DNA from: an uncultured Clostridia bacterium
GTDB lineage: Bacteria > Bacillota > Clostridia > TANB77 > CAG-508
Direction: 5' to 3'
DNA: 59,148 nucleotides
NCBI GenBank assembly: GCA_947623725.1
Contig: CANQHI010000005.1
Span: forward strand, 1-59,148
Shown in pieces: positions 1,971 through 59,101 of this stretch. The notes beneath the pieces were generated by a model. The model ran no database searches. It saw nothing but the letters and a program-made list of their open reading frames with translations, and was not told the origin of the DNA. Positions within the stretch are counted from its first letter, which is position 1. Each line of letters begins with the position of its first letter. The position numbers and the translations under genes were made by a program.

Positions 1971-1976
1971 AATTCT

Positions 1977-7352: not shown

Positions 7353-8792
7353 TTAATTGCTTTCTAATAAAGCATGATACTCTGTTGATTTTTTGTAGTT
7401 TGCTTCAACTTCTTTTTCAGACAATCCTTTACTATATAGCCTTAATGCATAACAGTTTAATTTTGAATAATTCCATGCATAATTTTCGTATTCTTCATTA
7501 ATCCTTCCAATTGTAAAACAATTAAAAGAATTTAAAAGTTCATTTGTGAAAATATCCCATTGTACTTTATTAAAATCTGCATCATACACTTTCTTACCAT
7601 TTATGTAACATTTATAACTGTAAAATTCTCCACTTTTATTAAAACTTGATCCATCACTATAAACCCCATTTTCACTATTCTTATTTTGACTCTTTGAAGT
7701 GTCCAATGTAATCGTTATGTAACAAGGTTTATTAGGCTCAAATTCAGTTTCTGATAAACTATTAACTACATTCCACTGGTACGATTTATGACAATAGTCA
7801 GACAATTCTCTACACTGTTTATATCCACCATTAACAGACCATTCTATACCTGGATTACTTGCATTTCCATTATTATGAACAATCCCAAATCTAAACCATG
7901 ACCACTCATTACTATCTTTAATTCCATAATAGAATAAACCATTACAATATCCATTAAACTTTTCATTATTAGAAATCCAATAATTATTTCCTAGGTTCCA
8001 ACTTCCATAAAATTCAAATGTAAATCCTTGTTTTGACAATGCCTCTTTTTGTTCTTGTTTATCATATTGTATTGTAATATAATCATCAACTCCATCAAAA
8101 TTAAATGATGTACTTGTTAATCCACTTTCATTTGTTCCTTCTTCACTAAAGTTATGTAATTCTACTCCTGTCCCTAATTGTTTCTCAATATCTTCTTTAC
8201 TTTGTCCTGTTCCTTTATCTATTATTGATGAATCTATATTTATTATTAAATTATCTTTTACTGCTAGCATATCTCCTGCTGACCATGATTTATATTTTCC
8301 TTCTTCTAATTGAATTATTTCTCCTGTTTCATAATTTACTAGCCAATTATAATTTGCATTTCCATATCCACTTAATTCTGTTCCTTTTTCTACATAATAC
8401 CAACCATTGTCATATTGTTTTCCAGTATTTTCTACTTTTACTATATGCCAATTATATGAATTTTCTATGTTTTTTTCTTTTAACTCATCTCCTAATCTTT
8501 CCGAGCTTACATTTTCTAAATATTTACCTAATTGTACCGAGATTACATTTTGTCCTAAATATTCTCTTTCACTCTCTAAATTATACTTTTCTACTGTTGT
8601 TTTTGCTCTTTTAAACAATCCATTTTGGCTTAAAGCTGTAGTTAAAGTTACTCCTGTTAATATTAAGAGTATTATTATCGTTATTACTAATGCTACCAAG
8701 GTGATTCCACATTCTTTATAATTTACTTTTCTCATTATTTTTTGCTTTCTTACTGATTCTTTTTTTATAAACTTTATTTTTTTATTCATCAT
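7353..8792 (-). CDS. Pilin-like-anchored protein, paralog 1, with a LamG/concanavalin-like C-terminal region
   Basis: N-terminus is ...RKVNYKECGITLVALVITIIILLILTGVTLTTALSQNGLFKRAK. It resembles a class III (prepilin) signal but has Ala, not Glu, at +5. FNFDGVDDYITI is a typical LamG-like motif. Start chosen at the ATG at 8792 after AAAAGGAGATTTT. Confidence 0.7.
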   Translation of the reverse strand: MMNKKIKFIKKESVRKQKIMRKVNYKECGITLVALVITIIILLILTGVTLTTALSQNGLFKRAKTTVEKYNLESEREYLGQNVISVQLGKYLENVSSERLGDELKEKNIENSYNWHIVKVENTGKQYDNGWYYVEKGTELSGYGNANYNWLVNYETGEIIQLEEGKYKSWSAGDMLAVKDNLIINIDSSIIDKGTGQSKEDIEKQLGTGVELHNFSEEGTNESGLTSTSFNFDGVDDYITIQYDKQEQKEALSKQGFTFEFYGSWNLGNNYWISNNEKFNGYCNGLFYYGIKDSNEWSWFRFGIVHNNGNASNPGIEWSVNGGYKQCRELSDYCHKSYQWNVVNSLSETEFEPNKPCYITITLDTSKSQNKNSENGVYSDGSSFNKSGEFYSYKCYINGKKVYDADFNKVQWDIFTNELLNSFNCFTIGRINEEYENYAWNYSKLNCYALRLYSKGLSEKEVEANYKKSTEYHALLESN

Positions 8793-8842
8793 AAAATCTC
8801 CTTTTATTATCAATACTTTACAAGTAATTTTATACACAAATT

Positions 8843-9039
8843 TTTTTATTAATTAAAAAGCTTAATAAAAAAACTATAAATCTTATAACTCAACTTTTTC
8901 AATGAGTTTATAAAATTTATAGTTTTTTATTTGTTATTAAATTGTAATAATTTTATTTTTCTAAAATCTTGTTAAAATATTATATTTATGATAAATTTTA
9001 TTTATATTCATTTTTATTAAGCTTTTTAATTAATTATAA
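8843..9039. promoter_or_regulatory. Putative invertible segment (switch L1) bounded by inverted arm-core-arm sites
   Basis: Site 8843-8871 is TTTTTATTAA/TTAAAAAGC/TTAATAAAAA. Site 9011-9039 is TTTTTATTAA/GCTTTTTAA/TTAATTATAA. They form a 24-nt perfect inverted repeat. The interior holds hairpin 8868-8928 and the promoter-like TTGTTA-17-TAAATT (8969-8997, + strand). Confidence 0.55.
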
Positions 9040-9065: not shown

Positions 9066-10320
9066 TTAATTATCTACTACTAGCTTAAAACTAACAACAC
9101 CATCTGTTTCATTTTTTTCTAATCTATAACCACTTGATGTCAAATCAATAGAAACCATTGGTCGAAGTGAATTTTGTGCACCAACTTCATATCCGATGTG
9201 CAGTACATACATTCGCACCTGCAACTCGATATGCATCAGTAAAATAGAATACAGCTTGTAATCCAAAGTCACAATTATCATCATATAAATGAACATAACG
9301 CCCTGCCAAGTAATAACTAACACCAAAATAATCTAAACCATCCTCTTTTTTTAATAACAAATCATAATATTTAGGATTTATAAATTCACTTTGTCTATTA
9401 AGATAATCATGTCCATAGAATGATTCTCTAAATGTTAAATTACTATTTCCCGTTTCATTATTAGTTTTATATCCATTCTCTTGTTCCCACATCAGGCATT
9501 CTTTATCACTTCCATTCTCTGTACCATCAACCTCATTATATTCATACATCCATTTTGAATCATATTCTTCCCACATTTTAGGATATTTTAGACTTGTATA
9601 TGTTGTTTTACTTCCTCCAAAATGCATCTTTCCTTCATCATTTTCAAACCAACCACTAGGATCATACTTATATTTTCTATAATCATAATTGCTTACCTTT
9701 TGTATATCACTTCTTCTTAAATTTGCTACACTTATTCCATTTTTCATTTTACCATTTTCATCATATTGTCCATAACATTGTCTACATATCTCATTTATTG
9801 CCCATACGCCATTATTATATCCTGTTGCTCCTCTTAATGTTAAGGTTTCATTTGTTGGTCTACTTGATATTAATCTTATTGTCTTTGTATATTTATTATA
9901 ATCCCAGATTCTCCAATCCAAGTCTTCTGTTGTAAATTTTTGATCTCCATTTTCTTCTGCATTTACAATTGTATTACCATCATTATCTTGTTGTGAAGTT
10001 AATCCTGATGTTATACTTTTTATTATAAATGAACTGGTATCATTTTTTTCTATTGGTTCATATCCTTCTACATAACATCCTACATAGTCATTATAATCTA
10101 TTGATATCTCATCTAACTCTTCTGCTATACTATCCAATGCTAATTGTTCTTGTTTTTCTGACTCTTGATATTCTTTTACTGCCTTTTTTGCCATTTTAAA
10201 CAATCCATTTTGCCCTAATGCTGTAGTTAAAGTTACTCCTGCTAGAATCAATAATAATATTATTGTTATTACCAAAGCTACCAATGTAATACCTTTTTCT
10301 TTATAATTTACTTTTCTCAT
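9066..10320 (-). pseudogene. Pilin-like-anchored protein, paralog 2, frame broken near 9193-9195
   Basis: Same N-terminus (MRKVNYKEKGITLVALVITIILLLILAGVTLTTALGQNGLF). Frame A stops at 9187. Frame B (9066..9326) supplies the family C-terminus ...NSLRPMVSIDLTSSGYRLEK..., which matches paralog 3. Removing one base at CAT-CGG-ATA joins them. Confidence 0.7.
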
Positions 10321-10346
10321 CCTTTGCACCTCTAACTTCATTAATT

Positions 10347-10567
10347 TTTTTATTAATCTAAAAACTTAATAAAAAAAATAATTAAACATTTATAGACCTT
10401 GTATTATAGATTCGAAGCTAGAATCCAGTTAAATTTTTTATAAAAATTTAACTAAAATTTTGGTCAATAAAGTTTAATTATTTTTTATTTTATACTTGTT
10501 TAAATATTTATGTTATGATAATATTCTTATATATAAAATTTTTATTAAGTTTTTAGATTAATAATTT
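10347..10567. promoter_or_regulatory. Putative invertible segment (switch L2)
   Basis: Site 10347-10375 is TTTTTATTAA/TCTAAAAAC/TTAATAAAAA. Site 10539-10567 is TTTTTATTAA/GTTTTTAGA/TTAATAATTT. They form a 26-nt perfect inverted repeat. Promoter-like TTGTTT-17-TAATAT with TGn lies at 10496-10524 (+). Confidence 0.55.
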
Positions 10568-20385: not shown

Positions 20386-21204
20386 TTAATAACTTGTCCA
20401 ATAATAATATAAAATATTATTATCTATATCATAAACTCCTATTTCCCATCCGGTTGCTTCTTCATCTGTAAAATGATGTTTTTTATATTCATCACTTGTT
20501 CTGCACACTTTTTCATAGTGATAATATCCATTTTCTATTGAAAGTACTTCTTCATTGTATTCAAAATCATCTAATTTTTCATCTTCTAGTCTATTCTTGT
20601 TCCACTTTGGACTTTGTTCTAATGTTTTTATTACTTCTTTTCCTTGTTCATCTGTAAATTGATATGTATAATAATCTAAACCATCACCCTGAGGACCACC
20701 TCTTACACTATATATTTCTCTTGTTTTATAATTATTTGTTTTTATACCTAAAATCTCACTATAATTTTTATGATGATTAAAAGGACCATTTTCAAAATAA
20801 TATAGTTTTGCATTTTTTAAATCAAATATGGCATATCCCTTCTCATAATAATATAAATCTTCTCTATCTATTTCTACTACATAATCATCTCTAATTTCAT
20901 AAAACTCCTTCATTATATATTCATAATATTTATTTTTACTCCATATATCACTATTTTCTAATTGTTTTCTAAAAGTATCCATACTATCACTATAATAGTT
21001 TTTTATTTTATATACCTTATATTTTCCAAACCTGTCAAAACCATATTTCGTACAATATTCTATATTAATATCTTCTATTTGTAATCCCAAGTTTTTATAA
21101 TCTGTGTCACCTTTTATTTTATAAAAAAATATAGATAAATGAGAAATAATTATAACAATTATAATTATTAATAATATATATATAATTATCTTTTTATTTT
21201 TCAT
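20386..21204 (-). CDS. Hypothetical N-terminally anchored protein
   Basis: 272-aa ORF with one TM. Tyr/Glu/Lys-rich with no recognisable domain. Confidence 0.5.
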   Translation of the reverse strand: MKNKKIIIYILLIIIIVIIISHLSIFFYKIKGDTDYKNLGLQIEDINIEYCTKYGFDRFGKYKVYKIKNYYSDSMDTFRKQLENSDIWSKNKYYEYIMKEFYEIRDDYVVEIDREDLYYYEKGYAIFDLKNAKLYYFENGPFNHHKNYSEILGIKTNNYKTREIYSVRGGPQGDGLDYYTYQFTDEQGKEVIKTLEQSPKWNKNRLEDEKLDDFEYNEEVLSIENGYYHYEKVCRTSDEYKKHHFTDEEATGWEIGVYDIDNNILYYYWTSY

Positions 21205-21230
21205 ATTTTCTCCTTGTTTAATAAAAGTTA

Positions 21231-22304
21231 TTATTTTATTACAAAATTATTCTTTTGTACTTTTATTGTAACTTTATATGACTTTATAACTCCATATTTA
21301 CTAGAAACAACTCCAAAATTGTTTAGTATGCTTGAAAATATACTAATTAGTAATGATTTATTAGATGTTACATATTCTTTTAAATCTGTAAAATCTGTAA
21401 AATCATAAGTATCTTCAATTACCATATTTACTTTCCAAGTATTATCTAAGTTTTTTTCAATTTCTATACTTGTTGGAGAACCATGTATAGCAAATAATAA
21501 ATCTTTATTATTAAATTCAATTATACAATCTTCATTATTTTCACTATTATCCTTAAATTTATCTTTTTCACTACAATATTTTTTTATAAGTTCTTTTATT
21601 TTATTATCAAATTCTTCACTTTCTAGTATATCTTCAATAACTTCTTTATCATTAATCAATAAATCTTGTGGTTGCTTTCCAAATAAAGATAATGAATGCG
21701 ATAATAATTTAGCTGAAAGTTTCATATTTGCTAATAATCCTCCAACAACCACAACTTGCCAAAATGTATATTGCATTGCATAAAAAACGGTATAAGCAAT
21801 AGGAGAGTTTTTCTTAGTTAAATCAAATATAAAACTCATACTTTTTATAAAGTTCTCTGCTACATCTTTATCTACTTCTTCCCAATTAGTTTTTTTAGCT
21901 TCTTTTAATAATTCATTAAATTTTTGTGTATAATTAAACAATTTGTATATTTCATTTAGTGAAAACGACATCGTCTCTATTATATTTTTTGAAAAAGTTT
22001 TGATATTTTTTATATCATTAGAAACTTTTTCTTTTACATCATTTAAAGCTTCATAGTTCATCATGTTTAGATACGTTAATGCAATATATTTTTGAGCTAA
22101 AACATATTTTTTCTTTTTACTAAGAAAAAACTTATGATTTTTCCATGCTATTCTAGTACATAAATACAATTCTTTATTCCATATTATTCTAGGTGATTTA
22201 GCAAATCCCAATAATTCATATAAATTATCTAGGCATCCTCTTCCAAACATTTCATATTTATAATTATATGGTCTATTACATAATAAACATCTTTTTTCTT
22301 CCAT
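21231..22304 (-). CDS. Hypothetical protein
   Basis: 357-aa ORF with an N-terminal CLLCNRP...GRGC motif. No family recognised. Confidence 0.5.
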   Translation of the reverse strand: MEEKRCLLCNRPYNYKYEMFGRGCLDNLYELLGFAKSPRIIWNKELYLCTRIAWKNHKFFLSKKKKYVLAQKYIALTYLNMMNYEALNDVKEKVSNDIKNIKTFSKNIIETMSFSLNEIYKLFNYTQKFNELLKEAKKTNWEEVDKDVAENFIKSMSFIFDLTKKNSPIAYTVFYAMQYTFWQVVVVGGLLANMKLSAKLLSHSLSLFGKQPQDLLINDKEVIEDILESEEFDNKIKELIKKYCSEKDKFKDNSENNEDCIIEFNNKDLLFAIHGSPTSIEIEKNLDNTWKVNMVIEDTYDFTDFTDLKEYVTSNKSLLISIFSSILNNFGVVSSKYGVIKSYKVTIKVQKNNFVIK

Positions 22305-22327
22305 TTTTAATACTCATTTCTTACCAT

Positions 22328-22423
22328 TTATTTTTGTTTATTCATTATATTTGATATTTGTTCTTTTAACTCATTTATATAGTTTAATATCTTTGTTAAT
22401 ATTATATTATCTTTACTTTTCAT
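22328..22423 (-). pseudogene. Truncated HEPN/DUF86-like toxin remnant (31 codons)
   Basis: Its ATG overlaps the MNT stop. Translation MKSKDNIILTKILNYINELKEQISNIMNKQK resembles the N-terminus of DUF86 HEPN partners of MNT, then stops. Hand-translated. Confidence 0.4.
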
Positions 22424-22721
22424 ATACTATTACTCCTGTTCTTTCTATTTCCTTTTCAATTTTAGAATTTTTATTTATTTCTATTTTCTCTATTACATCA
22501 ACTTCTTTATTTAATTTTTCTTGTATCTTTCCAACTATTGCATAAAATTTTAATCCTTTAACTTTTCCTTTACTATCTAATAGTATATCTATGTCACTAT
22601 TTTGATTTGGATTTTTCTTCGCATATGATCCAAATAATATCGCTTTTTCAACTTCTGTATTACTAAGTATTTCATATAATATTGCTTTTATTTCATCAAT
22701 TGAATATATTTTTGTTGTCAT
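22413..22721 (-). CDS. Nucleotidyltransferase-domain protein (MNT-type antitoxin-like)
   Basis: ILFGSYAKKNPNQNSDIDILLD is a minimal nucleotidyltransferase motif. Confidence 0.75.
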   Translation of the reverse strand: MTTKIYSIDEIKAILYEILSNTEVEKAILFGSYAKKNPNQNSDIDILLDSKGKVKGLKFYAIVGKIQEKLNKEVDVIEKIEINKNSKIEKEIERTGVIVYEK

Positions 22722-22851
22722 TTTTTTCACACACCTTTCTTTTTATTATTATATCATATTTTATAATATAATTTCTTTTTATAAAGTTCTGATACACTTT
22801 TATTTACTTATTTTCAATTATTTTTTATCTCTTTTCTTATCTTACTATTTT

Positions 22852-24048
22852 TTAATTTATTACACTAGAAATAGGTATAATATAATTCTTTTCATCTATT
22901 TTCATTAGTTTATCATATAAACAAATAATTCCACCATTTCCTATTTTCATATTTGTTTTTTCAAGATGTTTAAAACTTTTTATCATATCTTTTCTAGGAT
23001 TTGCTGTTTTCTTTATTACTAATGGGTATAATGTGTTATTCTTAAAAATAATTAAATCGATTTCTTCCGTTTCTTTATTTCTAAAATGTGATATTTCTAA
23101 ATTTATTCCTTTATTTTCATATGACTTTATAAGTTCTGAAATTACATACGATTCAAAAAAATTGTCTGATAAATCACTCAATTGTAATGTTCTTGCACTT
23201 TCCCAATTTGCTAGATAACAAGCTAATCCTAAATCCATAAATATTATTTTAGGCATATGAGTAAGTCTTTTTATTTTATTTGATGAATATGGTTCTAATA
23301 AATATACAAGTCCTGTACTTACTAATATTGAAAACCAATCTTTAATTGTATTTACTGAAACTCCTACATCATTTGCAATATCTGAATAATTTAAATTTGT
23401 ACCTGTTCTTATTGCAACAGCCCTCATAAATTTTTTAAATGCCTCTACATTGCCTATTTTTTTTATATCTTTTTCTATATATTTGTCAATATATGAATAA
23501 TAAAAGTCATTTCTATCCATATTTTCTATATCATATAATTCTGGCATTCCTCCATTGAAAATTCGTTCAAATATTTCATTTACATCTATATATTTATTCT
23601 GTTTCAGATTATCTGGATCAAAAATTTCTTTTCTTGTATTTCTCATAATTTCGCTATATGTAAAACTATTCATTTTAACTATACCAGCTCTATTTGCAAG
23701 TGATTCTGTAACATTTTTCATAAGATCAAATAATTGAGAACCAGACAACCAATATTGTCCTCTTGTCTTATCCTTATCAACTTTCATTTTTATATATGGA
23801 AGTAGCTCTGGAGCATATTGTACTTCATCAATAAAAAGTGGTGCAGGATATGAATCTAAAAATATTTTTGGATTTTCTTTTGCTTCTCTTCTTAAGATTT
23901 CATCTTCTAATGAAATTTTAGTCATATTTTCTGGTATTACACTTTCAAGCAAAGTTGTTTTTCCAACTTTTCTTGGTCCTGTTACCACTAATACTTTGAA
24001 TGTATCATTAATTTTTTTTATTCGTTCTTTTACCTCTCTTTCATACAT
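22852..24048 (-). CDS. AAA-family ATPase with a DUF4143-like C-terminus
   Basis: VVTGPRKVGKTTLL Walker A. 398 aa, an architecture common in mobile or accessory DNA. Confidence 0.7.
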   Translation of the reverse strand: MYEREVKERIKKINDTFKVLVVTGPRKVGKTTLLESVIPENMTKISLEDEILRREAKENPKIFLDSYPAPLFIDEVQYAPELLPYIKMKVDKDKTRGQYWLSGSQLFDLMKNVTESLANRAGIVKMNSFTYSEIMRNTRKEIFDPDNLKQNKYIDVNEIFERIFNGGMPELYDIENMDRNDFYYSYIDKYIEKDIKKIGNVEAFKKFMRAVAIRTGTNLNYSDIANDVGVSVNTIKDWFSILVSTGLVYLLEPYSSNKIKRLTHMPKIIFMDLGLACYLANWESARTLQLSDLSDNFFESYVISELIKSYENKGINLEISHFRNKETEEIDLIIFKNNTLYPLVIKKTANPRKDMIKSFKHLEKTNMKIGNGGIICLYDKLMKIDEKNYIIPISSVIN

Positions 24049-24093
24049 TTTTTTATTCCCCCAAATAACATATATTTATATTTTATATTTTCG

Positions 24094-24159
24094 TTGCAAA
24101 AAAGTCAATATTATTATTGCAAAAAAGTCAATATGTTTGCTTAAAAAAAGTCAAATATT
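24094..24159. repeat. Three direct repeats with 23-bp periodicity upstream of the ATPase gene
   Basis: ttgcaaaaaagtcaatat at 24094 and 24117, and ttgcttaaaaaaagtcaaatat at 24137. The GTCAA cores lie at 24104, 24127 and 24150. Confidence 0.8.
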
Positions 24160-24259
24160 ATATTTCATATTAGACATTTATTTCATTACAAAAAAAAATT
24201 TAAACTACTATACTTTTTAATTTATAGCAATTTAAATTTTTCCATATATAAATTATATT

Positions 24260-25189
24260 TTAAGCTAAAATTTTTGCTTCAATATTTCTAATTTTATATT
24301 TTCCATTTTCTTCAATAAAATCATATAAGCTTTTATCTAAGCTGTCACTGTTTTGTTTTAAATCAGTTGTATAATAAAAATTAATTTTGTCTATTTTTAC
24401 GCCATTTGTAACTAAAGCTTTAAAAGTTTCTGCCATGTGTCTTTCATCTTCACATATAAAAACAAGTTGTGGTATCGAAATGAAATCTGAATCTCCAGGA
24501 TTAAAATTATCATAAAAATCTTTCCATAAATTCATTCTTTCGACTAATCTTTTTTCCCAATTTTCATTTCTTCTAACTACTTCATATACAAAACTTATTT
24601 TTCTATTATTTGCAACTAAATCAATACTTAATGTAGGTTTAAACTGTTTACTAAGAGTTTTTGCTTGAATTACTGGTTTTAGTTTATAATCTGAAAAAGT
24701 TTTTACTTTTCTCATATATGCAATAACTAATTGATTTCCAGCAAGTTTTTTCTTTATCATTTCAACAGGTTTTGCATTATCACTTGGTTGCCATTTGCAT
24801 TCTACCTCTCTTGATGTAAGCAAATATTTTCCCATCTTCTCCATGCAGTAAACTCTATATATTCCACTTCCTTCTGGTGATGTAAAATAATATCTTGTAA
24901 GTATTTTGCTTCTAATTAATTGGTCTAATTTATTGTTTAATTTATCTTGAGTTTTTATATCTGCTTTTTGAAGTTGTAATAATTGAAACATTTGTCTTGA
25001 TGTTAAAAATTCAAATTTATTTATTAATTCTAAAATTTGAAAATGTATTTCATTTATATGTCCTACATTTATCTTCTGTATAATCTGATTCATTGAGACA
25101 TAACCGTCTTTTCCATCAAATACTTTTATCTCCCCTTCTCTCATTCTAAAAGGTGAGACTGTTGTTTTAATTTCATTATCTGCTAACAT
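24260..25189 (-). CDS. Replication-relaxation family protein (plasmid/ICE-type)
   Basis: 309-aa ORF whose N-terminal winged-helix-like region and overall pattern resemble the replication-relaxation family. ATG follows AGGAGGAAAAA. Confidence 0.55.
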   Translation of the reverse strand: MLADNEIKTTVSPFRMREGEIKVFDGKDGYVSMNQIIQKINVGHINEIHFQILELINKFEFLTSRQMFQLLQLQKADIKTQDKLNNKLDQLIRSKILTRYYFTSPEGSGIYRVYCMEKMGKYLLTSREVECKWQPSDNAKPVEMIKKKLAGNQLVIAYMRKVKTFSDYKLKPVIQAKTLSKQFKPTLSIDLVANNRKISFVYEVVRRNENWEKRLVERMNLWKDFYDNFNPGDSDFISIPQLVFICEDERHMAETFKALVTNGVKIDKINFYYTTDLKQNSDSLDKSLYDFIEENGKYKIRNIEAKILA

Positions 25190-34909: not shown

Positions 34910-36202
34910 CTAATTATATTTAATTAATTTGAATTTCACAGTTTCATCTTCTTCAACTTTTTCTAAATCGTATCCACTAGATATTAAGTTGATACTAACT
35001 ATTGGGCGAAGTGCACTTCCCTGACACCAAACCTGATTCCAAGTCTCAATCATAGACCTACCTCCTATATCTTCCGAAGTGATAAAACCATTACTCCCCT
35101 CTACCGTACATATACCAAACTCACCATGATCCACAAATAAATGAGTATATCGACACGAAAGCCAGTAAGTCATATAATGCTTGTCAAATAAGATATCCTT
35201 ATATTTCTCATCTTTGAATTCTTCGTTCGAATATTTATGCCCGATACTACTCGATTGTTTTAGTTCCACATTATCACAACTTTTTTGGGCTGTATCAACT
35301 TTCATATTATCATTTTCTAGTTCCCATATCAAGCCTTCTTTATCTTCTCCCACTCCTTCTCCATCTTTATATTCATAAGACCACTCTTCATCTTTTTCCC
35401 ACATTACTGGATAATAACAATTACTTTCATATTTATGAGTACTTCCATAAGATATATCTCCACTTGAATCATATTGCCACCCATTCTCTCTATTTCCAAG
35501 CTTATGCTTATACTGGGTAAAATCATAAGTACTTACATTTTGTATATCACTTCTTTTTAAATTTGCTACTGATATTCCTCTTTTCATTTGATTATTTTCA
35601 TCATATTGTCCATAACATTGTCTACATATTTCATTTACTGCCCACACTCCGTTATTATATCCTGTTGCTCCTTTTAATGTTAATGTTGCCTCTGTTGGTT
35701 TATCTGATATTAATCTTATTGTTTTTGTATATTTATCATAATCCCAGATTCTCCATTCTAATTCTTCTGTTGTAAATTTTTGATCTCCATTTGTTTCTAC
35801 ACCATCAATTGTATTACCATTTTCACCTTGATTTGAAGTCACTCCTGATGTTTCACTTTTTATTATAAATTCACTTCCTGTTGTTTTTCCTGTTGGCTCG
35901 TATCCTTTTACATATGCTCCTACATAATCATTATAATCTATTGATATTTTTTCCATCTCTTCTGCTATACTATCCAATGCTGATTGTTCTTGTTTTTCTG
36001 CCTCTTGATATTCATTTACTGCTTTTTTTGCCATTCTAAACAATCCATTTTCACTTAATGCTGTATTTATTGTTATTCCTGCTAATATTAATAGTATTAT
36101 TATGGTTATTACTAGTGCTACTAATGTGATTCCTTTTTCTTTATGATTTATTTTTCTCCTATTGTGCATTTTATTTTCTTTTACATTATCCTTATTTTTC
36201 AT
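34910..36202 (-). CDS. Pilin-like-anchored protein, paralog 3 (intact counterpart of paralog 2)
   Basis: ...HKEKGITLVALVITIIILLILAGITINTALSENGLFRMAKKAV... with C-terminal YWLSCRY...ALRPIVSINL. ATG follows AAAGGAGAACTAAC. Confidence 0.75.
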   Translation of the reverse strand: MKNKDNVKENKMHNRRKINHKEKGITLVALVITIIILLILAGITINTALSENGLFRMAKKAVNEYQEAEKQEQSALDSIAEEMEKISIDYNDYVGAYVKGYEPTGKTTGSEFIIKSETSGVTSNQGENGNTIDGVETNGDQKFTTEELEWRIWDYDKYTKTIRLISDKPTEATLTLKGATGYNNGVWAVNEICRQCYGQYDENNQMKRGISVANLKRSDIQNVSTYDFTQYKHKLGNRENGWQYDSSGDISYGSTHKYESNCYYPVMWEKDEEWSYEYKDGEGVGEDKEGLIWELENDNMKVDTAQKSCDNVELKQSSSIGHKYSNEEFKDEKYKDILFDKHYMTYWLSCRYTHLFVDHGEFGICTVEGSNGFITSEDIGGRSMIETWNQVWCQGSALRPIVSINLISSGYDLEKVEEDETVKFKLIKYN

Positions 36203-46193: not shown

Positions 46194-47921
46194 CTAATCT
46201 CCACAATAAATTGGTAATCCTAGATTTGAATATATTGCATAATATTCTCCTAAAAATTTAACATCATTATATTCTAATTCATAAGTACATTCTTTCACAA
46301 CATTTCCACTTAAATCAAGAACCCCCCATTTACCGTCTTTTTTTACACCAACATTATTTCCATTTTGCTCAGTAACAAAATCATATTGATAATCTACTAT
46401 AACATTACCATCGCTGTCTTTGAATCCCCACTTATCATTTTGTTTTGTAGCATATATTGTGTTATTTGGAAATAAATTTTTATATGTTGTTTCATCTCCA
46501 TCTAAAGTAAAATACTTGATAGCTTTATCTGAAATAATTTCTAAATAATTTTCTTCTTGTATTATAGTTCCATTCTCTAACCCTTCTTGTATTTCACCTT
46601 TACTATTAATTATAGTATTTTTGTTATCATCTAAATTCATTGCTTGTAGGCAATTAGTTCCATCTATTTTTTGAATTGTATTATATTCTAAAGGAACTAC
46701 ATTTGATCCATCTGCTTTTATAAGTCCTGTTTTTGATTCATTCGTCGCAATAAATAAATCATCTCTAAAATATTCAATATATGAATAATTAGTATTTAAT
46801 AATTTATTGTTGTCATTGTCCATAATATTATAATTATCATCTTTATCAATTATTATGCTATATTTATCTGAAACTTTTTCTTTGCTTGTATCTTCAGTAT
46901 CTATAGTGTTTCCGGTTTTATCAAATATTATTGTATTTTCTTCTTTTATTGCATTAATATATTCTCCACCAATTATAATTGTATCATAATCAATTGGAAT
47001 AATATTTTTTCCATTTATATCAAAAACACCTTGTGAAGAGTCTTTTTGAACAATTATTACTTCATTTGTTTTATCATAATCAATATTTATATATTCATTT
47101 TCTAAAATAGTTTTATTATTCTTTAAAAGTCCATATCTACCATTTAATGATGTTATGAAATATACATCTTTAGTATTTTCGATTTCTGTTATTCTATTTA
47201 CTTCATTGTAAATCGGCTCTAAAACTATTTTTCCTGATGTTGTAGCATATCCAAATTTATATCCATCATCAGTTTTTATTCTTAGTATAAATCCTGCTTC
47301 AGAATATTTTGTTTTCTCATCATAATATCCGTCAGATAATATATTTTCATATTCTTCGTCTAATATTTTTTGTCCTTTAATATCTATAACTCCATAGTTT
47401 TCTTCTTTTTTAACTTTTAAATATCCTTCTTTATAATCTATATTCACTATTTCTTCATATTCTGCTTCTGTGATTTTATTTCCTTCATAATCCATTATTC
47501 CATATAAGTTACCTTCTTGATATTTAAGAACAGTCTTTTCATAAGGTACTAAGCTTGTGATTGTTTTAAGAGAAATAGCATCTACACTAGTATAGTTTGT
47601 CCATAATTTTTCATTATTTATATCTACTGCATTCCATATGTCATTATCATTATCCACTAAACAAACAAAGACTTCTTTAGTTGGATTAGGAATTTTTAGT
47701 CCATCATATTGTGGTTCAATTACGACTTGTCCATTTGCGTCAATTACTCCAAACTTATTATCTTTTTGTAAAATAAAATATTTTGCATCTTTTGCTTCTA
47801 TTTCTTCAAGTTTTAAAGTGTGTTTTGAATTCATTCCTAGAGTTATACCTACTATTACTCCTATCACTAATAAAATTAATATTACTATAATCAATATTTT
47901 TTTATTATTATTTTTTAGCAT
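46194..47921 (-). CDS. WG-repeat (KWG-type) protein with an N-terminal anchor
   Basis: Repeated xKFGVIDxxGxxVIEPxYD and KWGFKDSDGNVIV units. One N-terminal TM. Confidence 0.75.
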   Translation of the reverse strand: MLKNNNKKILIIVILILLVIGVIVGITLGMNSKHTLKLEEIEAKDAKYFILQKDNKFGVIDANGQVVIEPQYDGLKIPNPTKEVFVCLVDNDNDIWNAVDINNEKLWTNYTSVDAISLKTITSLVPYEKTVLKYQEGNLYGIMDYEGNKITEAEYEEIVNIDYKEGYLKVKKEENYGVIDIKGQKILDEEYENILSDGYYDEKTKYSEAGFILRIKTDDGYKFGYATTSGKIVLEPIYNEVNRITEIENTKDVYFITSLNGRYGLLKNNKTILENEYINIDYDKTNEVIIVQKDSSQGVFDINGKNIIPIDYDTIIIGGEYINAIKEENTIIFDKTGNTIDTEDTSKEKVSDKYSIIIDKDDNYNIMDNDNNKLLNTNYSYIEYFRDDLFIATNESKTGLIKADGSNVVPLEYNTIQKIDGTNCLQAMNLDDNKNTIINSKGEIQEGLENGTIIQEENYLEIISDKAIKYFTLDGDETTYKNLFPNNTIYATKQNDKWGFKDSDGNVIVDYQYDFVTEQNGNNVGVKKDGKWGVLDLSGNVVKECTYELEYNDVKFLGEYYAIYSNLGLPIYCGD

Positions 47922-48066: not shown

Positions 48067-48636
48067 TTATATGTCAATTATTTTTTTCGCACAGATATAT
48101 CTTAATTTATTATCTAAATCTTTTATGTATGTAAATAATTTTAAATATTGTTCATAGTTATTATTAACTTTTATAATATTTTTTAAACTAGTTTTTTCTA
48201 TTATTTTGTTTGAAATAACTTTATATACTCGTCTTTCATTATTAACAGTATAAACAATTTTTTCACCTAGTTCTATATCCTTTAAATTCGCAAAATAATT
48301 ATTCTTATGTCCATAATTGTAAGCTATTAAAGCAACATTGTTTCCCATAATATTACTTTCCTTAAAGTGACCTATATATCCGTCATCAGGTATATCTTCA
48401 TTCATCTGCTTAATATTGGCCTCAAGTTTTATACTATCTATCTGTAATGTCCATTCCTTTATATCATTAATATTAGGCTCAGATATGCTATTTTCTATAT
48501 TATTTTCTTCCGAGATTAATTCACTTGTTTCAATAGTTTTCATTGAGAAATTTATAAAAAAAATTATGATTATAAAGATTATTGAAGAAATTAATACTGA
48601 TAAAATATTTACATTGAATTTATTAAAATTAATCAT
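48067..48636 (-). CDS. Sortase-like protein lacking the canonical TLxTC cysteine
   Basis: N-terminal TM, then W.L.I..I.L.A.I, ...GH..., FANL..IELGEKIVY...YKV, and LKLFTY where sortases have LTLxTC. An Arg lies 9 residues downstream. Confidence 0.55.
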   Translation of the reverse strand: MINFNKFNVNILSVLISSIIFIIIIFFINFSMKTIETSELISEENNIENSISEPNINDIKEWTLQIDSIKLEANIKQMNEDIPDDGYIGHFKESNIMGNNVALIAYNYGHKNNYFANLKDIELGEKIVYTVNNERRVYKVISNKIIEKTSLKNIIKVNNNYEQYLKLFTYIKDLDNKLRYICAKKIIDI

Positions 48637-48703: not shown

Positions 48704-49543
48704 TTAATCTATTAGCTTTTTTAATTCATTTTCCTCTATTCCAACTAATTCTGATATATAACTAATATCTTTTCCTTCTTTAATTAATTTTTTTGCTATT
48801 TCTAACTTTCCTTTTTTATAACCATATAGTTCTATTGAATGTTCATCTCTTATTGCTTTTTCTCTTAAAAATTGCAATCTCTCCATCTTCTCATCTTCAC
48901 TTAATTCTTTTACTGTTATTACACATTTTTCTATTTCTTTATTTTCTTTCATTATCTCCTTAACCTCCTTTGAGTTCGGATTATCTAGAAATAGCATCCA
49001 TTGTGCTTTCTTATTTTTCTTGTCTTTTTCATACTCTTTGAGTGCTTTCCTTAAATTTATTATATTTATTTCTATTAGCTCTGTCAATATCTTTTCACGA
49101 TTTTTCGTCTCTATTAGTTTCCACTTTGTTTCCATTTCATCTATATCTTTTAGTTCTTCTATTTCAAAATCTATTATTGCTATTAATACTGTCCTTTTTA
49201 CATTTTCATATGGCTCTCCTCTTTTAAATTGATCTGAATACAGTCTTGTTGCATAATATAATATTCTCTCTATAAAATTTCCTTTATTTAATAATTGTAC
49301 TTCTACATCTACTTTCTCTTTATTATTAATTTCCAGTTCTAAGTCTAATATTCCTAATTTATCATTCGGTCTATTTCTTATTAATTCTTTATCTTCATTT
49401 ATTTTTATACTTTCTATTTTTTCTTCTAATAGTACTTCTGCAAATGCTTTCGTTATTTCTGGATTGTTTTTACTAAATAAACTTTGAAAAACAACATCTA
49501 TCTTTGGTATTAATAAATTATTTTTTCCATTTGTCATAGGCAT
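48704..49543 (-). CDS. Rpn/YhgA-like PD-(D/E)XK nuclease family protein (putative transposase-like)
   Basis: IPKIDVVFQSLF...LGILDLELE...VDVEVQL...YYATRLY pattern. Confidence 0.7.
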   Translation of the reverse strand: MPMTNGKNNLLIPKIDVVFQSLFSKNNPEITKAFAEVLLEEKIESIKINEDKELIRNRPNDKLGILDLELEINNKEKVDVEVQLLNKGNFIERILYYATRLYSDQFKRGEPYENVKRTVLIAIIDFEIEELKDIDEMETKWKLIETKNREKILTELIEINIINLRKALKEYEKDKKNKKAQWMLFLDNPNSKEVKEIMKENKEIEKCVITVKELSEDEKMERLQFLREKAIRDEHSIELYGYKKGKLEIAKKLIKEGKDISYISELVGIEENELKKLID

Positions 49544-55474: not shown

Positions 55475-56176
55475 TTATTGCAAAACATTCAGTGTGTCAC
55501 TTTCATTAATTCCATTTAAATTATAATACGTATCTGGTATATTACCAACTATGACTGCTTCTGCTAATAACACCTGTGTTTGAACATCTTCATCAATATC
55601 TTTATATGGAGAAAGCATTGTAATATGACAAGTTATATCTATATAAATTCTATGAAGCGTTTGATTAATACCTGCATCTGAAAATTCTGATTTTATATTT
55701 GTTTCTATGTTTCCTTCTGTAACCAAAATCAATCTAATTTTAGGTCCTTTTCCAATAAAAAATTTATTACCTGTAATTGTACCTAAGCTTATATCAAAAT
55801 TAGAATTTCCTTGTTTACTTAATTCTTCTTGTACCTGAAGAGCAATACTTGAGCAAAGTTGATTTATCGTTATTACATCTAATTTTATTAATTTTACATT
55901 TCCCTCTTCATCTTTTTCTACAGAACATAAATCTTGATAGGATATTCCTTCTGTTTTTTCTTTTGTTGCATTGTTAGAAATTGTAGCTGCTGCCGACCTA
56001 GCTAGAACTCTTGATTGCCTTTCTATAAATGGAGTAATTCCATCTATTATTTTTACTGCTGAAAAGTATGCAATGATTATAACTATCATTAAAATTATCA
56101 AGAATTTTTTATGTCTATCTATTTTTTTCGTACTAACTATTCTCGGTATTCGAAATCTTGAATAAATTTTATCCAT
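55475..56176 (-). CDS. yunB: Sporulation protein YunB
   Basis: N-terminal TM, then ...GTITGNKFFIGKGPKIRL...IETNIKSEFSDAGINQTLHRIYI... Confidence 0.8.
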   Translation of the reverse strand: MDKIYSRFRIPRIVSTKKIDRHKKFLIILMIVIIIAYFSAVKIIDGITPFIERQSRVLARSAAATISNNATKEKTEGISYQDLCSVEKDEEGNVKLIKLDVITINQLCSSIALQVQEELSKQGNSNFDISLGTITGNKFFIGKGPKIRLILVTEGNIETNIKSEFSDAGINQTLHRIYIDITCHITMLSPYKDIDEDVQTQVLLAEAVIVGNIPDTYYNLNGINESDTLNVLQ

Positions 56177-56177
56177 C

Positions 56178-57704
56178 TTACCCCATATATTTTTCTATAA
56201 ACAATTGTTGGCCTGGCATTATTTGGTCACTTTTCAACTCATTTGTATCAATTATACTTTGGACTGTACTATTAAACTCTTTAGCAATTTTCCACAAACT
56301 ATCATTTTTTCTTACTTGATATATAACCATATTGTAGTCGTCTTGATTTTGATTTTCTATCTCTTGTATATCATTAATTAATCTTAATTGTACATCATTT
56401 GAAGATATTATATTAAAGTTAATGTCTAATTTAATATTAATTTCGCCTCCCGGCAATATATTAAAATCTTGCAAACTTACATCTGTTTTTAATTTTATAT
56501 TTGCATCTCTATTTAAACCATTGCAACTGATTTTATTTTCAAAAGGAATACTTAAATTTTTCGTCTGAATTCCTGTATTTCCATTTGCTGAACAAATAAA
56601 CATTAAATTAATATTTCCACTAACCCAAACTTCATTATCATTTACTTTTATTTCTTCAACAAGAACATTAACATCTACATCATGAACTTTTTCATCTGCT
56701 ATACTTAATAGTTCTTTTTGATTTACATTTAAAGTTCCATTAAACATTGATTTATTCTGTATCATCTGTATATTATTTTGTTTAAAACTTAAATTCGTGC
56801 TAGGACTATATAAATCCTCAATAACATTAATTTCTTTATTATTATATGCAGTCGCATTTATACCAATTTCCACTTCTACATATATTGAATGTTCTGTTGC
56901 ACTATTAGGCTTTATTACCATATTTTTTATTTCAAAATCATATTCACAAGGATCATTTTCATTAATGTCTTGCATATCAATAAATCCTATAATAGGAAAT
57001 TTTGCATTAGCTGTATTAATTCTTCCATCTTCTGTTAAATATAATATTTTCAAACGCAAATCCGCTTTAGCTAAGATTTTATTATAACTAATTTTTATAT
57101 TCCTATTTCCTATATCACTGTTTACCTTTAAAATTTCTGCTAAATTATCATTCGCATCGATTTTTATAGTTTCTTTTACTGTTGACCTAGTTTGACCAAT
57201 TCCTAAAATAGTGTTAACTTGAATTGTCTTTTCTAATTTCTGTATATCTTTTAAATCAACATTATTAACATATTCAACATCATTACTTGCTAATACTTGT
57301 ATATCAAAATTTAGCATTGCTTTTAAATTTATTTTTCTCTCATTTATAATTCTGCTCTCTATTGAAAGTAATTTAACATCTATATTTACATTCATATCAG
57401 ATGTGATATCTTCTATATTAAAACTTTGTGAAAAATCTAAAACATGGTTTATACTTCTTACTCCTTTAGTCTTTCCATCATCTCCAATGTACATAACATA
57501 TACATTTACTGCACCATCAATTCTAATTTTTCCATCCATTACTTCTTTTTTATAAACATTTACTATTCCGCTTGTTCCAATAAGTTCTAGTATGTCCGGT
57601 TTTATGTCAGGGACAATGCTATCTCCTTCAATTGTTATTGATTCATTTTGATTTGAAATAACTTGATTGACAGCTAGTTTATTTTTTTCTAACTTTATAG
57701 CCAT
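56178..57704 (-). CDS. DUF3794-domain plus C-terminal LysM protein (SipL-like spore-coat morphogenetic protein)
   Basis: N-terminal SIVPDIKPDILELI... (DUF3794-type). C-terminal YQVRKNDSLWKIAKEFNSTVQSIIDTN is a LysM domain. Confidence 0.7.
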   Translation of the reverse strand: MAIKLEKNKLAVNQVISNQNESITIEGDSIVPDIKPDILELIGTSGIVNVYKKEVMDGKIRIDGAVNVYVMYIGDDGKTKGVRSINHVLDFSQSFNIEDITSDMNVNIDVKLLSIESRIINERKINLKAMLNFDIQVLASNDVEYVNNVDLKDIQKLEKTIQVNTILGIGQTRSTVKETIKIDANDNLAEILKVNSDIGNRNIKISYNKILAKADLRLKILYLTEDGRINTANAKFPIIGFIDMQDINENDPCEYDFEIKNMVIKPNSATEHSIYVEVEIGINATAYNNKEINVIEDLYSPSTNLSFKQNNIQMIQNKSMFNGTLNVNQKELLSIADEKVHDVDVNVLVEEIKVNDNEVWVSGNINLMFICSANGNTGIQTKNLSIPFENKISCNGLNRDANIKLKTDVSLQDFNILPGGEINIKLDINFNIISSNDVQLRLINDIQEIENQNQDDYNMVIYQVRKNDSLWKIAKEFNSTVQSIIDTNELKSDQIMPGQQLFIEKYMG

Positions 57705-57799
57705 AGCTTACCTCCTTAATATTTACTTAAATATATGCGAGGTAAATTAAAATATGATTGAATTATTATATATTTCTATTTTTTATAATTTGGTAAAAT

Positions 57800-58792
57800 T
57801 TAATCTTTGATTGCAGATTTTGGAATCGAAATTACAGGTCGTACACCTTCCTTATTATGGTCAAACGTAGCATTATCGAAAGTCCCTATTATACAACGTA
57901 TTGTACACACATATTTATAATTATTATCATTATTATTATCATTACCTCCACGTGCTGCCAACCAATAACCCCACACATCGTTCGTATCACCTAGAAAAAA
58001 AACCTTGTTACCCAAAATAGCTTCATTTCTTACATATACGCTAAATTCTTCACTTTCCTCACCTATTTTATACTTAACCTGCTGAGAATCGTCTTTTATT
58101 ATTGTTAACTTATCTTCTACATTACTTCCATATCTTTCATTATACGCACTTTCTAGCTGTTCTGCAGTTGGACCTCCTGCTGCTGTTACTTCTACCTCTA
58201 TCCCTTTTTCCTTTAATGCCTTTTTAACTCCATTTGCAATGCTTGTCCAATTACTCGCTCCAGTCAAATAATTTATTAATTGCTCTCTATTACCACTTAT
58301 AACATTCCCATACACTACAATTCCACTATGCATTATACCTTTTACATATGGTATTGCATTTTCTTCTAAATAGTCTGAATATATAAAATATACTTTCCCT
58401 TCACTTTCATCTGTATAATAATATTGCCAACCATGTTCAAGAACTTTACCGTTTACTATAACATCACCTAAGTTTACCGTTTGACTATCGTCTGGTTTGT
58501 TGTCTACGTTTTTTGGTATTTCTATTTTTTCTTCTGATGGTGGTACCGGTGGCTCTGGTGTTTTATCTCCATCTACTATTTTGTCTATCTCTTTTTCTAC
58601 TTCTCCTAATTTTTCTGCCTCATCTGATTCTGATTCCTTATAATTTTCTCCTGCATATTTTGCCCTTTGAAATAGTCCATTTTGTCCTAGTGCTGTTGTT
58701 AATGTTACTCCTGCTAATATTAATAGTATTATTATTGTTATTACTAATGCTATTAATGTTATTCCTTTTTCTTTATAATTTTCTTTTCCCAT
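57800..58792 (-). CDS. Pilin-like-anchored protein, paralog 4
   Basis: MGKENYKEKGITLIALVITIIILLILAGVTLTTALGQNGLFQRAK... with C-terminal YWLAARG...EGVRPVISIP. ATG follows AAGGGGGAAAATCAAAAG. Confidence 0.75.
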   Translation of the reverse strand: MGKENYKEKGITLIALVITIIILLILAGVTLTTALGQNGLFQRAKYAGENYKESESDEAEKLGEVEKEIDKIVDGDKTPEPPVPPSEEKIEIPKNVDNKPDDSQTVNLGDVIVNGKVLEHGWQYYYTDESEGKVYFIYSDYLEENAIPYVKGIMHSGIVVYGNVISGNREQLINYLTGASNWTSIANGVKKALKEKGIEVEVTAAGGPTAEQLESAYNERYGSNVEDKLTIIKDDSQQVKYKIGEESEEFSVYVRNEAILGNKVFFLGDTNDVWGYWLAARGGNDNNNDNNYKYVCTIRCIIGTFDNATFDHNKEGVRPVISIPKSAIKD

Positions 58793-58849
58793 CTTTTGAT
58801 TTTCCCCCTTATTATTACTTACTTTTTTCTTATATTTATTAATAAATTA

Positions 58850-58878
58850 ATTTTATTATTTATAAAGTATTAAGTCAA
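58850..58878 (-). promoter_or_regulatory. Promoter-like element between switch L4 and gene 4
   Basis: The minus strand has TTGACT, a 17-nt spacer and TAAAAT. It is homologous to 36318-36346. Confidence 0.45.
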
Positions 58879-58904
58879 TGCCAAGCAATATTTTACTTCT
58901 GTTT

Positions 58905-59101
58905 ATTTTATTAAGTAGAAAGATTAATAAAAAAGTATAAAATCTTGCAATTCATTTATTCCAATGATTATGCAAAATTTTATACTTTACTTTTTTACGA
59001 TTTTGTAATAATTTTTATCTTTATTTTTTTCTTATAATTGACTATATTATGCTATATTTTATATATATAATTTTTTTATTAATCTTTCTAATTAATAATA
59101 T
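58905..59101. promoter_or_regulatory. Putative invertible segment (switch L4)
   Basis: Site 58905-58933 is ATTTTATTAA/GTAGAAAGA/TTAATAAAAA. Site 59073-59101 is TTTTTATTAA/TCTTTCTAA/TTAATAATAT. 25 of 26 positions are inverted-repeat matches. Promoter-like TTGACT-18-TATATA lies at 59038-59067 (+). Confidence 0.5.

Follow-up and report, generated by a model that had tools for sequence, protein, structure and literature searches.

The switch that we designate L4, situated upstream of a gene for a prepilin-like protein in an uncultured Clostridia bacterium, is probably an intact member of a multi-copy family of invertible promoters that switch genes for prepilin-like surface proteins on and off. 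The window, by which we mean the whole stretch of DNA that was analysed, is a complete contig of 59,148 nt with a G+C content of ~25%. L4 lies upstream of gene 4, our name for the minus-strand gene at 57800-58792, and is composed of two inverted sites of 29-30 nt (58905-58933 and 59073-59101), between which are ~140 nt that contain a long hairpin and an outward promoter. A repeat finder delimits the L4 arms as 30 nt each with 93% complementarity and 137 nt between them, located 112 nt upstream of the gene 4 ATG; the L4 interior of 141 nt is the modal length for these cassettes. The parts of L4 and of its immediate surroundings are as follows.

55475-56176, minus strand (same strand as gene 4): yunB
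56178-57704, minus strand: sipL, with SipL SPOCS and LysM domains (Pfam)
57800..58792, minus strand: gene 4, prepilin-like protein of 330 aa (ORF list, paralog alignment)
58793..58904, minus strand: leader, from the proximal site to the ATG (sequence)
58803-58810, minus strand: putative RBS AAGGGGGA in the gene 4 leader (sequence)
58878..58850, minus strand: fixed promoter-like TTGACT-17-TAAAAT in the gene 4 leader (promoter scan, 10/12 matches)
58905-58933: putative proximal recombination site, with outer half-site 58905-58914, dimorphic base 58915 (G), 7-nt spacer 58916-58922, position 9 at 58923 and inner half-site 58924-58933
58932..58988: AT-rich long hairpin with A-runs and T-runs on both sides, adjoining the gene-proximal site in the present orientation
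58995..59008: central dyad TTACGATTTTGTAA, between hairpin and promoter (seen in alignments)
59029..59067, plus strand: predicted outward promoter, directed toward the distal site and away from gene 4
59073-59101: putative distal recombination site, with inner half-site 59073-59082, position 9 at 59083, spacer 59084-59090, dimorphic base 59091 (A; T on the other strand) and outer half-site 59092-59101

The distal L4 site stops 47 nt short of the contig end, a position that the original prediction did not mention. That prediction did describe L4 as one of four loci of a single design, each upstream of a paralogous gene, and repeat pairs are indeed found at all three sister loci listed below.

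8843..9039: switch L1, upstream of paralog 7353-8837 (minus strand), OFF, spacer TAAAAAG
10346..10567: switch L2, upstream of paralog 9187-10341 (minus strand), OFF, spacer CTAAAAA
36373..36569: switch L3, upstream of paralog 34910-36202 (minus strand), OFF, spacer TAATAAA

The interior of L2 is extended to 165 nt by an insertion of ~24 nt. A core-plus-arm pattern matches four times in the window versus 0.41 matches expected by chance, and the remaining window genes are housekeeping and sporulation genes such as spo0A, clpC, leuS and spoVA.

These four cassettes belong to a much larger family. A strict scan with the pattern TTATTAA-N9-TTAATAAAA-N{135,165}-TTTTATTAA-N9-TTAATAA across one genome per species (GTDB representatives) returned 85 two-site loci, all of them in ~10 MAGs labelled "uncultured Clostridia bacterium", of which nine are from rabbit gut ("Lapin" bins) and one is a BRZ_EP bin. 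L4 matches this strict pattern while L1 and L3 fail it. With a relaxed pattern the family reaches 124 cassettes in all, four in the window and the others in ~10 rabbit-gut Clostridia MAGs, with individual MAGs contributing 12, 15, 16, 22, 22 and 26 cassettes in addition to the four of the window. A generic two-site pattern run against JGI metagenomes added one further true relative (L098); another match there (L097, 21% GC) was taken as a chance match in AT-rich, organelle-like DNA. A gene with a conserved GITL.AL motif reads away from one side of 111 of the 124 cassettes, while the other 13 have no gene in the DNA covered, and nearly all family cassettes precede genes for proteins with a prepilin-like N-terminus. 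Interiors measure 139-143 nt in nearly all copies. In gene orientation the consensus consists of the distal site, a reversed promoter, the central dyad, an A/U-rich hairpin with a T-run, the proximal site and a leader of 45-110 nt, followed by an RBS and the ATG. All family data derive from consensus MAG assemblies. Our search of the literature on invertible promoters with pilins in Clostridia or Firmicutes found no description of this system, and the cassette family is a new addition, of unusual size, to the class of invertible promoters.

Both orientations are present in this family, with 107 cassettes OFF (promoter away from the gene) and four ON (promoter toward the gene; L038, L075, L081 and L083). 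All four window switches are OFF. In two of the ON cassettes (L038 and L075) the ~190 nt between the repeats align in reverse to paralogs with 89-95% identity (BLAST) while the gene and the outer flank align forward, such that the inversion is limited to the repeat-bounded segment. The view of L4 as a switch like L1-L3 upstream of a paralog is thus upheld by its cassette anatomy and by the occurrence of both orientations across the family, whereas inversion at L4 was itself unseen and is something that we infer from sequence. Additionally, 10 of 122 switches are located within 100 nt of a contig end, versus 1.5 expected, and six of these ten are 43-54 nt from the end, as is L4. This excess fits, without proving, breaks in the assembly graph at an element that is repeated or of mixed orientation. 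No single locus was seen in both orientations across the samples compared (relatives' loci P0039, P0014, P0037 and P0122), a comparison in which similar places were collapsed by the search. For example, three relatives' loci (L099, L100 and L101) and two switches in a fourth (L102) are all OFF in the assemblies of other samples. The inverted L4 junction gave 0 matches in JGI metagenomes. Exact-protein look-ups for other assemblies of L4 found gene 4, yunB, gene 2 and gene 3 not on record; the exact SipL protein occurs on two low-coverage contigs that both end short of the switch, and the exact protein of the gene at the L075 ON locus occurs on one contig only.

The two L4 sites, which a direct reading returned letter for letter as originally predicted, are ATTTTATTAA, GTAGAAAGA and TTAATAAAAA at 58905-58933 and TTTTTATTAA, TCTTTCTAA and TTAATAATAT at 59073-59101. 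Sites across the cassettes follow the formula TTTTTATTAA(G/T), a 7-nt spacer and CTTAATAAAAA, and this apparent arrangement of half-site, 7-nt spacer and half-site is the usual layout of a tyrosine-recombinase site. The original prediction also called attention to a core mismatch at L4, the sole one among the four window switches, and proposed that it may slow or lock the switch. Comparison of the 9-mers agrees on the mismatch, in that the two L4 cores are reverse complementary but for one end position (58915 G versus 59091 A), and the same comparison agrees that L1-L3 have no such difference. The mismatched base is the outermost position of the 9-nt core; it adjoins the outer half-site and falls outside of the 7-nt spacer. 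The proposed consequence is not supported by alignment of the 9-nt core, outer to inner, in the 109 gene-assigned cassettes, as 52% of these switches (57 of 109), ON copies included, are unlike between partners at position 1. Elsewhere in the core, partners differ once in 763 comparisons at positions 2-8 (at position 3) and four times at position 9. Position 1 is always G or T in the 109 cassettes, and a distal T with a proximal G, which is the state of L4, is the commonest single configuration (51/109) and also the arrangement at the switch of the closest homologue in another species. The L4 mismatch is consequently the normal state of the family and no sign of a broken switch, which removes a false lead.

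The ON cassettes allow the role of this base to be defined further. Two of the three ON copies in the analysis (L038 and L075) carry the same T/G pair as L4, and the OFF paralogs in their genomes likewise have T distal and G proximal. Since the pair is the same in ON and OFF copies, the base stays with the flank when the segment flips, and position 1 therefore behaves as part of a half-site rather than as part of the crossover spacer; it also follows that cassettes with this pair have inverted. At position 9 the base is usually C, in which case the inner half-site reads TTTTTATTAAG, and the counterpart of this base in the outer half-site is position 1. Whether T or G is present may have a modest effect on binding.

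In contrast to position 1, the spacers appear to be under strict constraint. Both L4 spacers are TAGAAAG, a perfect match, and across the family partner spacers are identical in 95% of switches versus 13% for random pairs, with 27 distinct spacers among loci. Identity with the partner combined with variation between loci is how the overlap region of a tyrosine recombinase should behave, and the spacer is a good candidate for such a region. The inner half-sites match in all copies, with 9 of their 10 bases fixed by the search pattern itself. Positions 2-6 of the proximal outer half-site, which were free to vary in the search, show 99-100% conservation. Thus the cassettes display what characterizes a core-type tyrosine-recombinase site (loxP, FRT, dif or RecV type), namely inverted half-sites around an asymmetric spacer of 6-8 bp that is identical between partners. 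The 124 cassettes amount to a natural mutagenesis series of the site, one in which position 1 tolerates change and the 7-nt spacer does not. The four window cassettes all have different spacers, while most cassettes of any one related genome have the same one (for example 16/22 or 10/12). Such sharing does not fit a simple spacer-code model and raises the question of how a partner site is chosen when most loci share one spacer. Some other factor may ensure that a site recombines only with the opposite end of its own cassette, and the fixed length and the central dyad are candidates for this role.

The cassette interior contains elements at either end that are likely to control transcription. 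The outward TTGACT-18-TATATA described in the original prediction is present on the plus strand (TTGACT at 59038-59043 and TATATA at 59062-59067), but the promoter that is conserved in the family is an overlapping one, which in L4 consists of TTCTTA (59029-59034), 18 nt and TGc-TATATT (59050-59058). The family consensus is TTGATT-17-TGc-TATATT, and the family-type -35 of L4 (TTCTTA) is weak. In 121 of 123 cassettes the inner arm is preceded, at a distance of 14-15 nt, by the end of an extended -10 element (TGnTAnnnT), a motif that no cassette has at its opposite end, and 104 of these 121 also have a TTGnnn -35 element. These motifs predict that the cassette has promoter activity. The interior hairpin, likewise part of the original prediction, is real; its folding energy is -22.9 kcal/mol (z = -7.1) for the gene-direction strand and -18.2 kcal/mol (z = -6.2) for the opposite one. 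It is followed by UUUUUUAUU, and U-runs come after the hairpin on both strands. The mean MFE of the hairpin over 119 cassettes is -19 kcal/mol. When a structure built from per-sequence folds was analysed by pair counting, these 119 switches gave 188 double-change cells versus 86 in shuffles, with 0 of 500 shuffles as high, and compensatory changes occur in 19 of the 23 hairpin pairs. The stem is almost pure A-U and as such fails the G-C criterion of a standard terminator scan. We consider the hairpin to be a putative bidirectional terminator-like element that would insulate each cassette, which in tandem arrays would be of use. The central dyad, located between hairpin and promoter, has the family form TTACAA-N2-TTGTAA and could be the site for an accessory protein.

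These features suggest the following mechanism. One end of each cassette would hold a sigma-A-type promoter that faces outward and has an extended -10, and the other end a hairpin with T-runs. In the assembled orientation the promoter would fire away from gene 4, with the hairpin interposed between upstream transcription and the gene, which would constitute the OFF state. After inversion the promoter would lie ~160 nt ahead of the gene 4 ATG, giving the ON state, in which the terminator would shield the promoter from upstream read-through. Strand exchange would be carried out by a tyrosine recombinase, encoded elsewhere in the genome, that cuts where the 7-nt spacer meets the half-sites. The G/T difference (58915/59091) lies in the outer half-sites, remains with the flanks and is no bar to inversion.

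The putative recombinase was sought in the window and in related loci (~0.5 Mb), and no gene for it was found. Pfam analysis of essentially all ORFs in the 59-kb window detected no integrase or resolvase, and phmmer searches with XerD, Hin and FimB had no match among the 1377 ORFs of all loci. Regular expressions for catalytic motifs gave one match in these 1377 ORFs, which is not recombinase-like. Clustering of the ORFs that neighbour the cassettes revealed no recurrent non-pilin family, save for apparent antisense ORFs. One ORF of the window (21231-22304) was considered and rejected, as its Phage_int_SAM_6 score is 18.4 bits versus 27.5, it lacks the R/HxxR/Y motifs and it has no PDB relative. 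The enzyme would have to act in trans. There is a precedent for this in RecV of C. difficile, which acts in trans at several loci (PMC5903667). The architecture of the sites points to a tyrosine recombinase as the class of enzyme involved. A serine invertase system (Hin, Gin or Cin) has sites of ~26 bp with a 2-bp central crossover, a recombinational enhancer and an invertase gene within or beside the segment. The cassettes do not conform to this: their spacer is an odd 7 nt, the segment is without an ORF, and no Hin-like ORF was found in the window or the loci.

A different type of enzyme is nonetheless a reading to be weighed. Inversion by a serine invertase of the Hin, Gin or Mpi type, or by a non-canonical enzyme of the Piv/IS110 type, would accommodate the lack of a recombinase in the loci searched, and the tight interior length (139-143 nt) together with the central dyad would suit an enhancer or topological filter. 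It would also ease the problem that spacers shared within a genome leave partner choice unexplained by spacer identity alone. A serine enzyme is nevertheless hard to reconcile with an odd, asymmetric 7-nt spacer between perfect inverted half-sites of 10-11 nt, a design ill-suited to a 2-bp staggered cut on the dyad axis, with identity that is needed over 7 nt rather than 2 and with a search of the loci in which no Hin-like ORF was found, and we regard this reading as quite unlikely. We regard as highly improbable a scenario without any inversion, in which the cassette is a static promoter-terminator module or MITE-like element, its palindromic ends are operators and the opposite orientations arose from independent insertions. 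The orientation data bear on this scenario in both directions. That 96% of cassettes have one orientation, that no polymorphism was seen at the same locus and that no recombinase was found nearby are what a static element would give, but it is hard to see what a static module would gain from a promoter that is directed away from its neighbouring gene 96% of the time. Moreover, flipped copies keep their flanks, outer half-sites and G/T bases with breakpoints exactly at the repeats, partner spacers co-vary as strand exchange but not operator binding requires, and contig breaks beside switches exceed expectation.

Granting that the family inverts, L4 itself may have decayed or become locked OFF through its G/T pair, its degenerate distal outer arm (TTAATAATAT) or its weak -35, with gene 4 silent or otherwise driven. 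A single assembly includes L4, where it is OFF, and the distal outer half-site and -35 of L4 do deviate from consensus. In RecV switches small repeat changes can alter the inversion rate, and repeat changes are known to lock the C. difficile flagellar switch (PMC12282940). Locking of L4 by its mismatch thus has a sound precedent, yet it is not supported. The T/G pair is the commonest in the family and is found in flipped copies too, conservation of the distal outer arm is weak throughout the family, and L4 satisfies a strict pattern that two of its sister switches fail. Its spacers are identical, its inner half-sites perfect, its hairpin and extended -10 intact and its interior modal in length, and it precedes an intact ORF with a confident fold, all of which makes a defunct L4 very unlikely. 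It is unlikely, though less so, that gene 4 is mainly expressed from the fixed TTGACT-17-TAAAAT of its leader with the switch only modulating, or that the switch mainly drives antisense or outward transcription past the contig end. This leader element matches 10 of 12 consensus positions (58878..58850), and TTGACT is present in 8 of the 12 clade members with this leader, a ninth (L1 of the window) having TTGATA. However, this AT-rich region contains 12 promoter-like matches versus 11.2 in shuffled sequence, the -35 is lost in four clade members that include the ON copy L038, and the ~45-nt leader of the wider family is without such a motif.

The protein controlled by L4 begins with MGKENYKEKG, followed by ITLIALVITIIILLILAGVT, and continues with a long helix and a globular C-terminal domain. 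The four window paralogs share an N-terminus of the form KEKG-ITL(V/I)ALVITIIILLILAGVT before they diverge. With type IV pilins and pseudopilins, the gene 4 protein shares a short, basic leader whose last residue is Gly, then ~20 hydrophobic residues, and a long helix at the N-terminus. Of the features that define a type IV pilin (Gly at -1, Glu at +5 and a score above the Pfam threshold), the gene 4 protein has the Gly at -1 as well as the hydrophobic helix, but position +5 is an Ala that is invariant in 32 homologues, unlike the Glu needed there for pilus assembly, and the Pfam N_methyl (PF07963) score is 18.5 bits versus a cutoff of 21.2. To judge by its sequence the product is prepilin-like and no demonstrated pilin, and it is presumably displayed at the surface. 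There are weak profile matches to the N-termini of geopilin, MshA and PilA, and one homologue (P0080) is named a prepilin-type cleavage/methylation domain protein by NCBI. An AlphaFold2 model (pLDDT 84) has a long N-terminal helix and a globular domain, and a PDB fold search with this model gave no significant match, faint similarity to C-type lectins being all that it returned. The window contains neither pilus machinery nor a gene for a prepilin peptidase. The protein family is large (5700 matches) with variable C-terminal domains that are themselves large and diverse, for example DUF6273-like, FGE-sulfatase and Big_2. The best gene 4 homologue (54% identity, Lapin-005 bin108) has the same cassette upstream. 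The locus of a 51% homologue (P0003) is without a switch, so not all family genes are switch-controlled.

Downstream of gene 4 the end of the gene (57800) and the start of sipL (57704) are separated by a gap of 95 nt (57705-57799). The original prediction saw no terminator here, and our analysis also found no terminator-like hairpin; the gap has no significant structure (z = -1.2), as is the case for the gene 4 leader (z = -1.2). By a crude test, 68% of 79 family genes likewise have no terminator in the next 130 nt, which makes gene 4 an unexceptional case. Read-through from gene 4 into sipL and yunB in the ON state is possible but unsupported. The gene order at the sipL locus is the same in two other samples. 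Upstream of sipL, the motif TCATATT-13-CATATATT looks by eye like a sigma-E-type promoter, and by analogy with the B. subtilis consensus this would provide sipL with a sigma-E-like promoter of its own.

Dozens of cassettes per genome also bring to mind a genome-wide system of one-of-many expression for hypervariable prepilin-like proteins that lack Glu at +5, a tentative idea that we consider possible though doubtful. Each consensus assembly has zero to two ON cassettes and nearly all others OFF. If true, such a system would represent antigenic or adhesin variation in a gut spore-former. Its recombinase could be non-canonical. Since most loci of a genome share a spacer, something besides spacer sequence must choose partners. 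This could be the fixed distance of ~170 bp from one site centre to the other, or the central dyad. Exchange between loci could also reshuffle the chromosome.

Among known systems, the RecV switches of C. difficile (cwpV, flgB and cmrRST, among others) are found in another member of the Clostridia and likewise consist of short segments, flanked by inverted repeats, that precede surface-related genes. In the proposed RecV site model, inverted half-sites surround a 6-bp spacer that must match between partners (PMC12282940). The layout of half-site, spacer and half-site is thus alike in both, with a spacer of 6 nt there and of 7 nt here, whereas the cassette half-site TTTTTATTAAG is unrelated to the RecV motif. 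The RecV system is composed of ~7 dissimilar switches, while here there are 12-26 or more near-identical cassettes per MAG that, unlike RecV switches, all regulate one protein family. The cassettes also depart from the RecV model in having no strict locus-specific spacer code, as most loci of a genome share a spacer, and they carry the promoter inside of the segment, in contrast to the flgB switch that acts after the start of transcription.

The fimS element of E. coli is inverted by the tyrosine recombinases FimB and FimE, of which FimE biases the switch from ON to OFF. Like the cassettes, fimS is an invertible promoter for a pilus or fimbrial subunit gene that is flanked by short inverted repeats, and the states observed here are also mostly OFF. 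It differs in being a single locus with adjacent recombinase genes, 9-bp repeats, a 314-bp segment and a need for IHF and Lrp, whereas the cassettes occupy many loci, have no adjacent recombinase and contain a segment of ~200 bp. The capsular polysaccharide promoters of Bacteroides fragilis consist of many similar invertible cassettes on which Mpi, a serine recombinase, acts in trans. The likeness would extend to multi-copy cassettes between conserved inverted repeats, variable surface structures as targets, a recombinase encoded elsewhere and combinatorial ON/OFF states. The site layout described here points instead to a tyrosine recombinase, and the cassettes further differ from those of B. 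fragilis in having a Gram-positive spore-forming host, single genes rather than operons as targets and a conserved terminator-like hairpin inside of the segment. If inversion is confirmed, this would be among the largest sets of invertible promoters known to us in a Gram-positive bacterium, and the Bacteroides style of many switches that control many surface variants would be extended to spore-forming Firmicutes.

Family alignments of the cassettes, each a predicted invertible promoter switch with two inverted recombination sites, reveal a conserved dyad, TTACAA-N2-TTGTAA, that in most family members lies at an equivalent place in mid-cassette, with the hairpin on one side and the promoter on the other. 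The interior length of the cassettes is also very tight, at 139-143 nt. An interior of 164 nt occurs in one relative, L039, and L2, one of the four switches of the window (L1-L4), has a similarly long interior, its insertion holding a G+C-bearing mini-hairpin, GGATTCTAGCTTCGAATC.

58995-59008: the conserved dyad, which reads TTACGATTTTGTAA in L4
10376-10538: L2 interior, 165 nt, of which about 24 nt are inserted sequence

The dyad could be bound by a protein with an accessory or regulatory role and, combined with the tight interior length, may be a sign that synapsis is geometrically constrained. When the cassettes of related genomes (L010-L094, grouped by MAG) are compared, most cassettes in each genome have one 7-nt spacer in common, for example GAAAAAA in 16 of 22 cassettes and TAAAAAG in 10 of 12. 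Recombination between loci should be expected where cassettes carry the same spacer, and the choice of partner therefore needs explaining. Cassettes L1-L4 have four different spacers.

Only 47 nt separate the end of L4 from the end of the contig (59101-59148). Of 122 switches across the family, 10 are at most 100 nt from the end of a contig, where 1.5 would be expected; these include L4, L020, L041, L046, L060, L075, L083, L085 and L094, and in six of the 10 the distance is 43-54 nt. This clustering suggests that assemblies break at cassettes, through either mixed orientation or repeat collapse.

Promoter-like sequences outside the switch occur both in the leader of gene 4, the prepilin-like paralog downstream of L4, and just upstream of sipL.

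58850-58878, minus strand: fixed promoter-like motif TTGACT-17-TAAAAT in the leader that separates the switch from gene 4
57715-57760, minus strand: TCATATT-13-CATATATT, just upstream of sipL

The leader motif and a small conserved stem, AAAGTATT/AATACTTT, overlap; most, not all, members of the clade of the window keep the motif, and the wider family lacks it. Its resemblance to sporulation promoters of the sigma-E/K type makes the sequence before sipL a candidate for one; if it is a true promoter, sipL would be expressed independently of gene 4. The mechanical call of the paralog 1 ORF (7353-8837, minus strand) begins at a GTG that overlaps the proximal arm of L1, and the true start is probably a downstream ATG, before MRKVNYKE or MMNKK, matching the other paralogs.

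Several other genes of the window deserve comment.

48704-49543, minus strand: PD-(D/E)XK "transposase" family protein (PDDEXK_2), adjoining the sortase and WG-repeat protein
48067-48636, minus strand: sortase
46194-47921: WG-repeat protein
20386-25189, minus strand: poorly annotated block among housekeeping genes
987-3092, minus strand: single ORF of 701 aa with FtsW/RodA/SpoVE (residues 12-361) and dihydrouridine synthase (396-696) domains

The PDDEXK_2 protein carries the sole recombination-related domain in the window and is not an obvious invertase. The poorly annotated block, which looks like a mobile-element remnant, contains two genes without a family, one of these with only a weak Phage_int_SAM_6 match, as well as an AAA_14/DUF4143 ATPase and a weak Replic_Relax match. 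The 701-aa ORF is a true fusion, or else two genes that a lost stop codon or an assembly error has merged.

A distant relative of the cassettes is found in another organism.

1208-1395 of VOFF01000680.1: L098 cassette

L098 shares the half-sites of the family cassettes and is likewise followed by a pilin-like gene, while its interior differs and its terminal repeats are longer (AAAACGTCTACAATT / AATTGTAGACATTTT).
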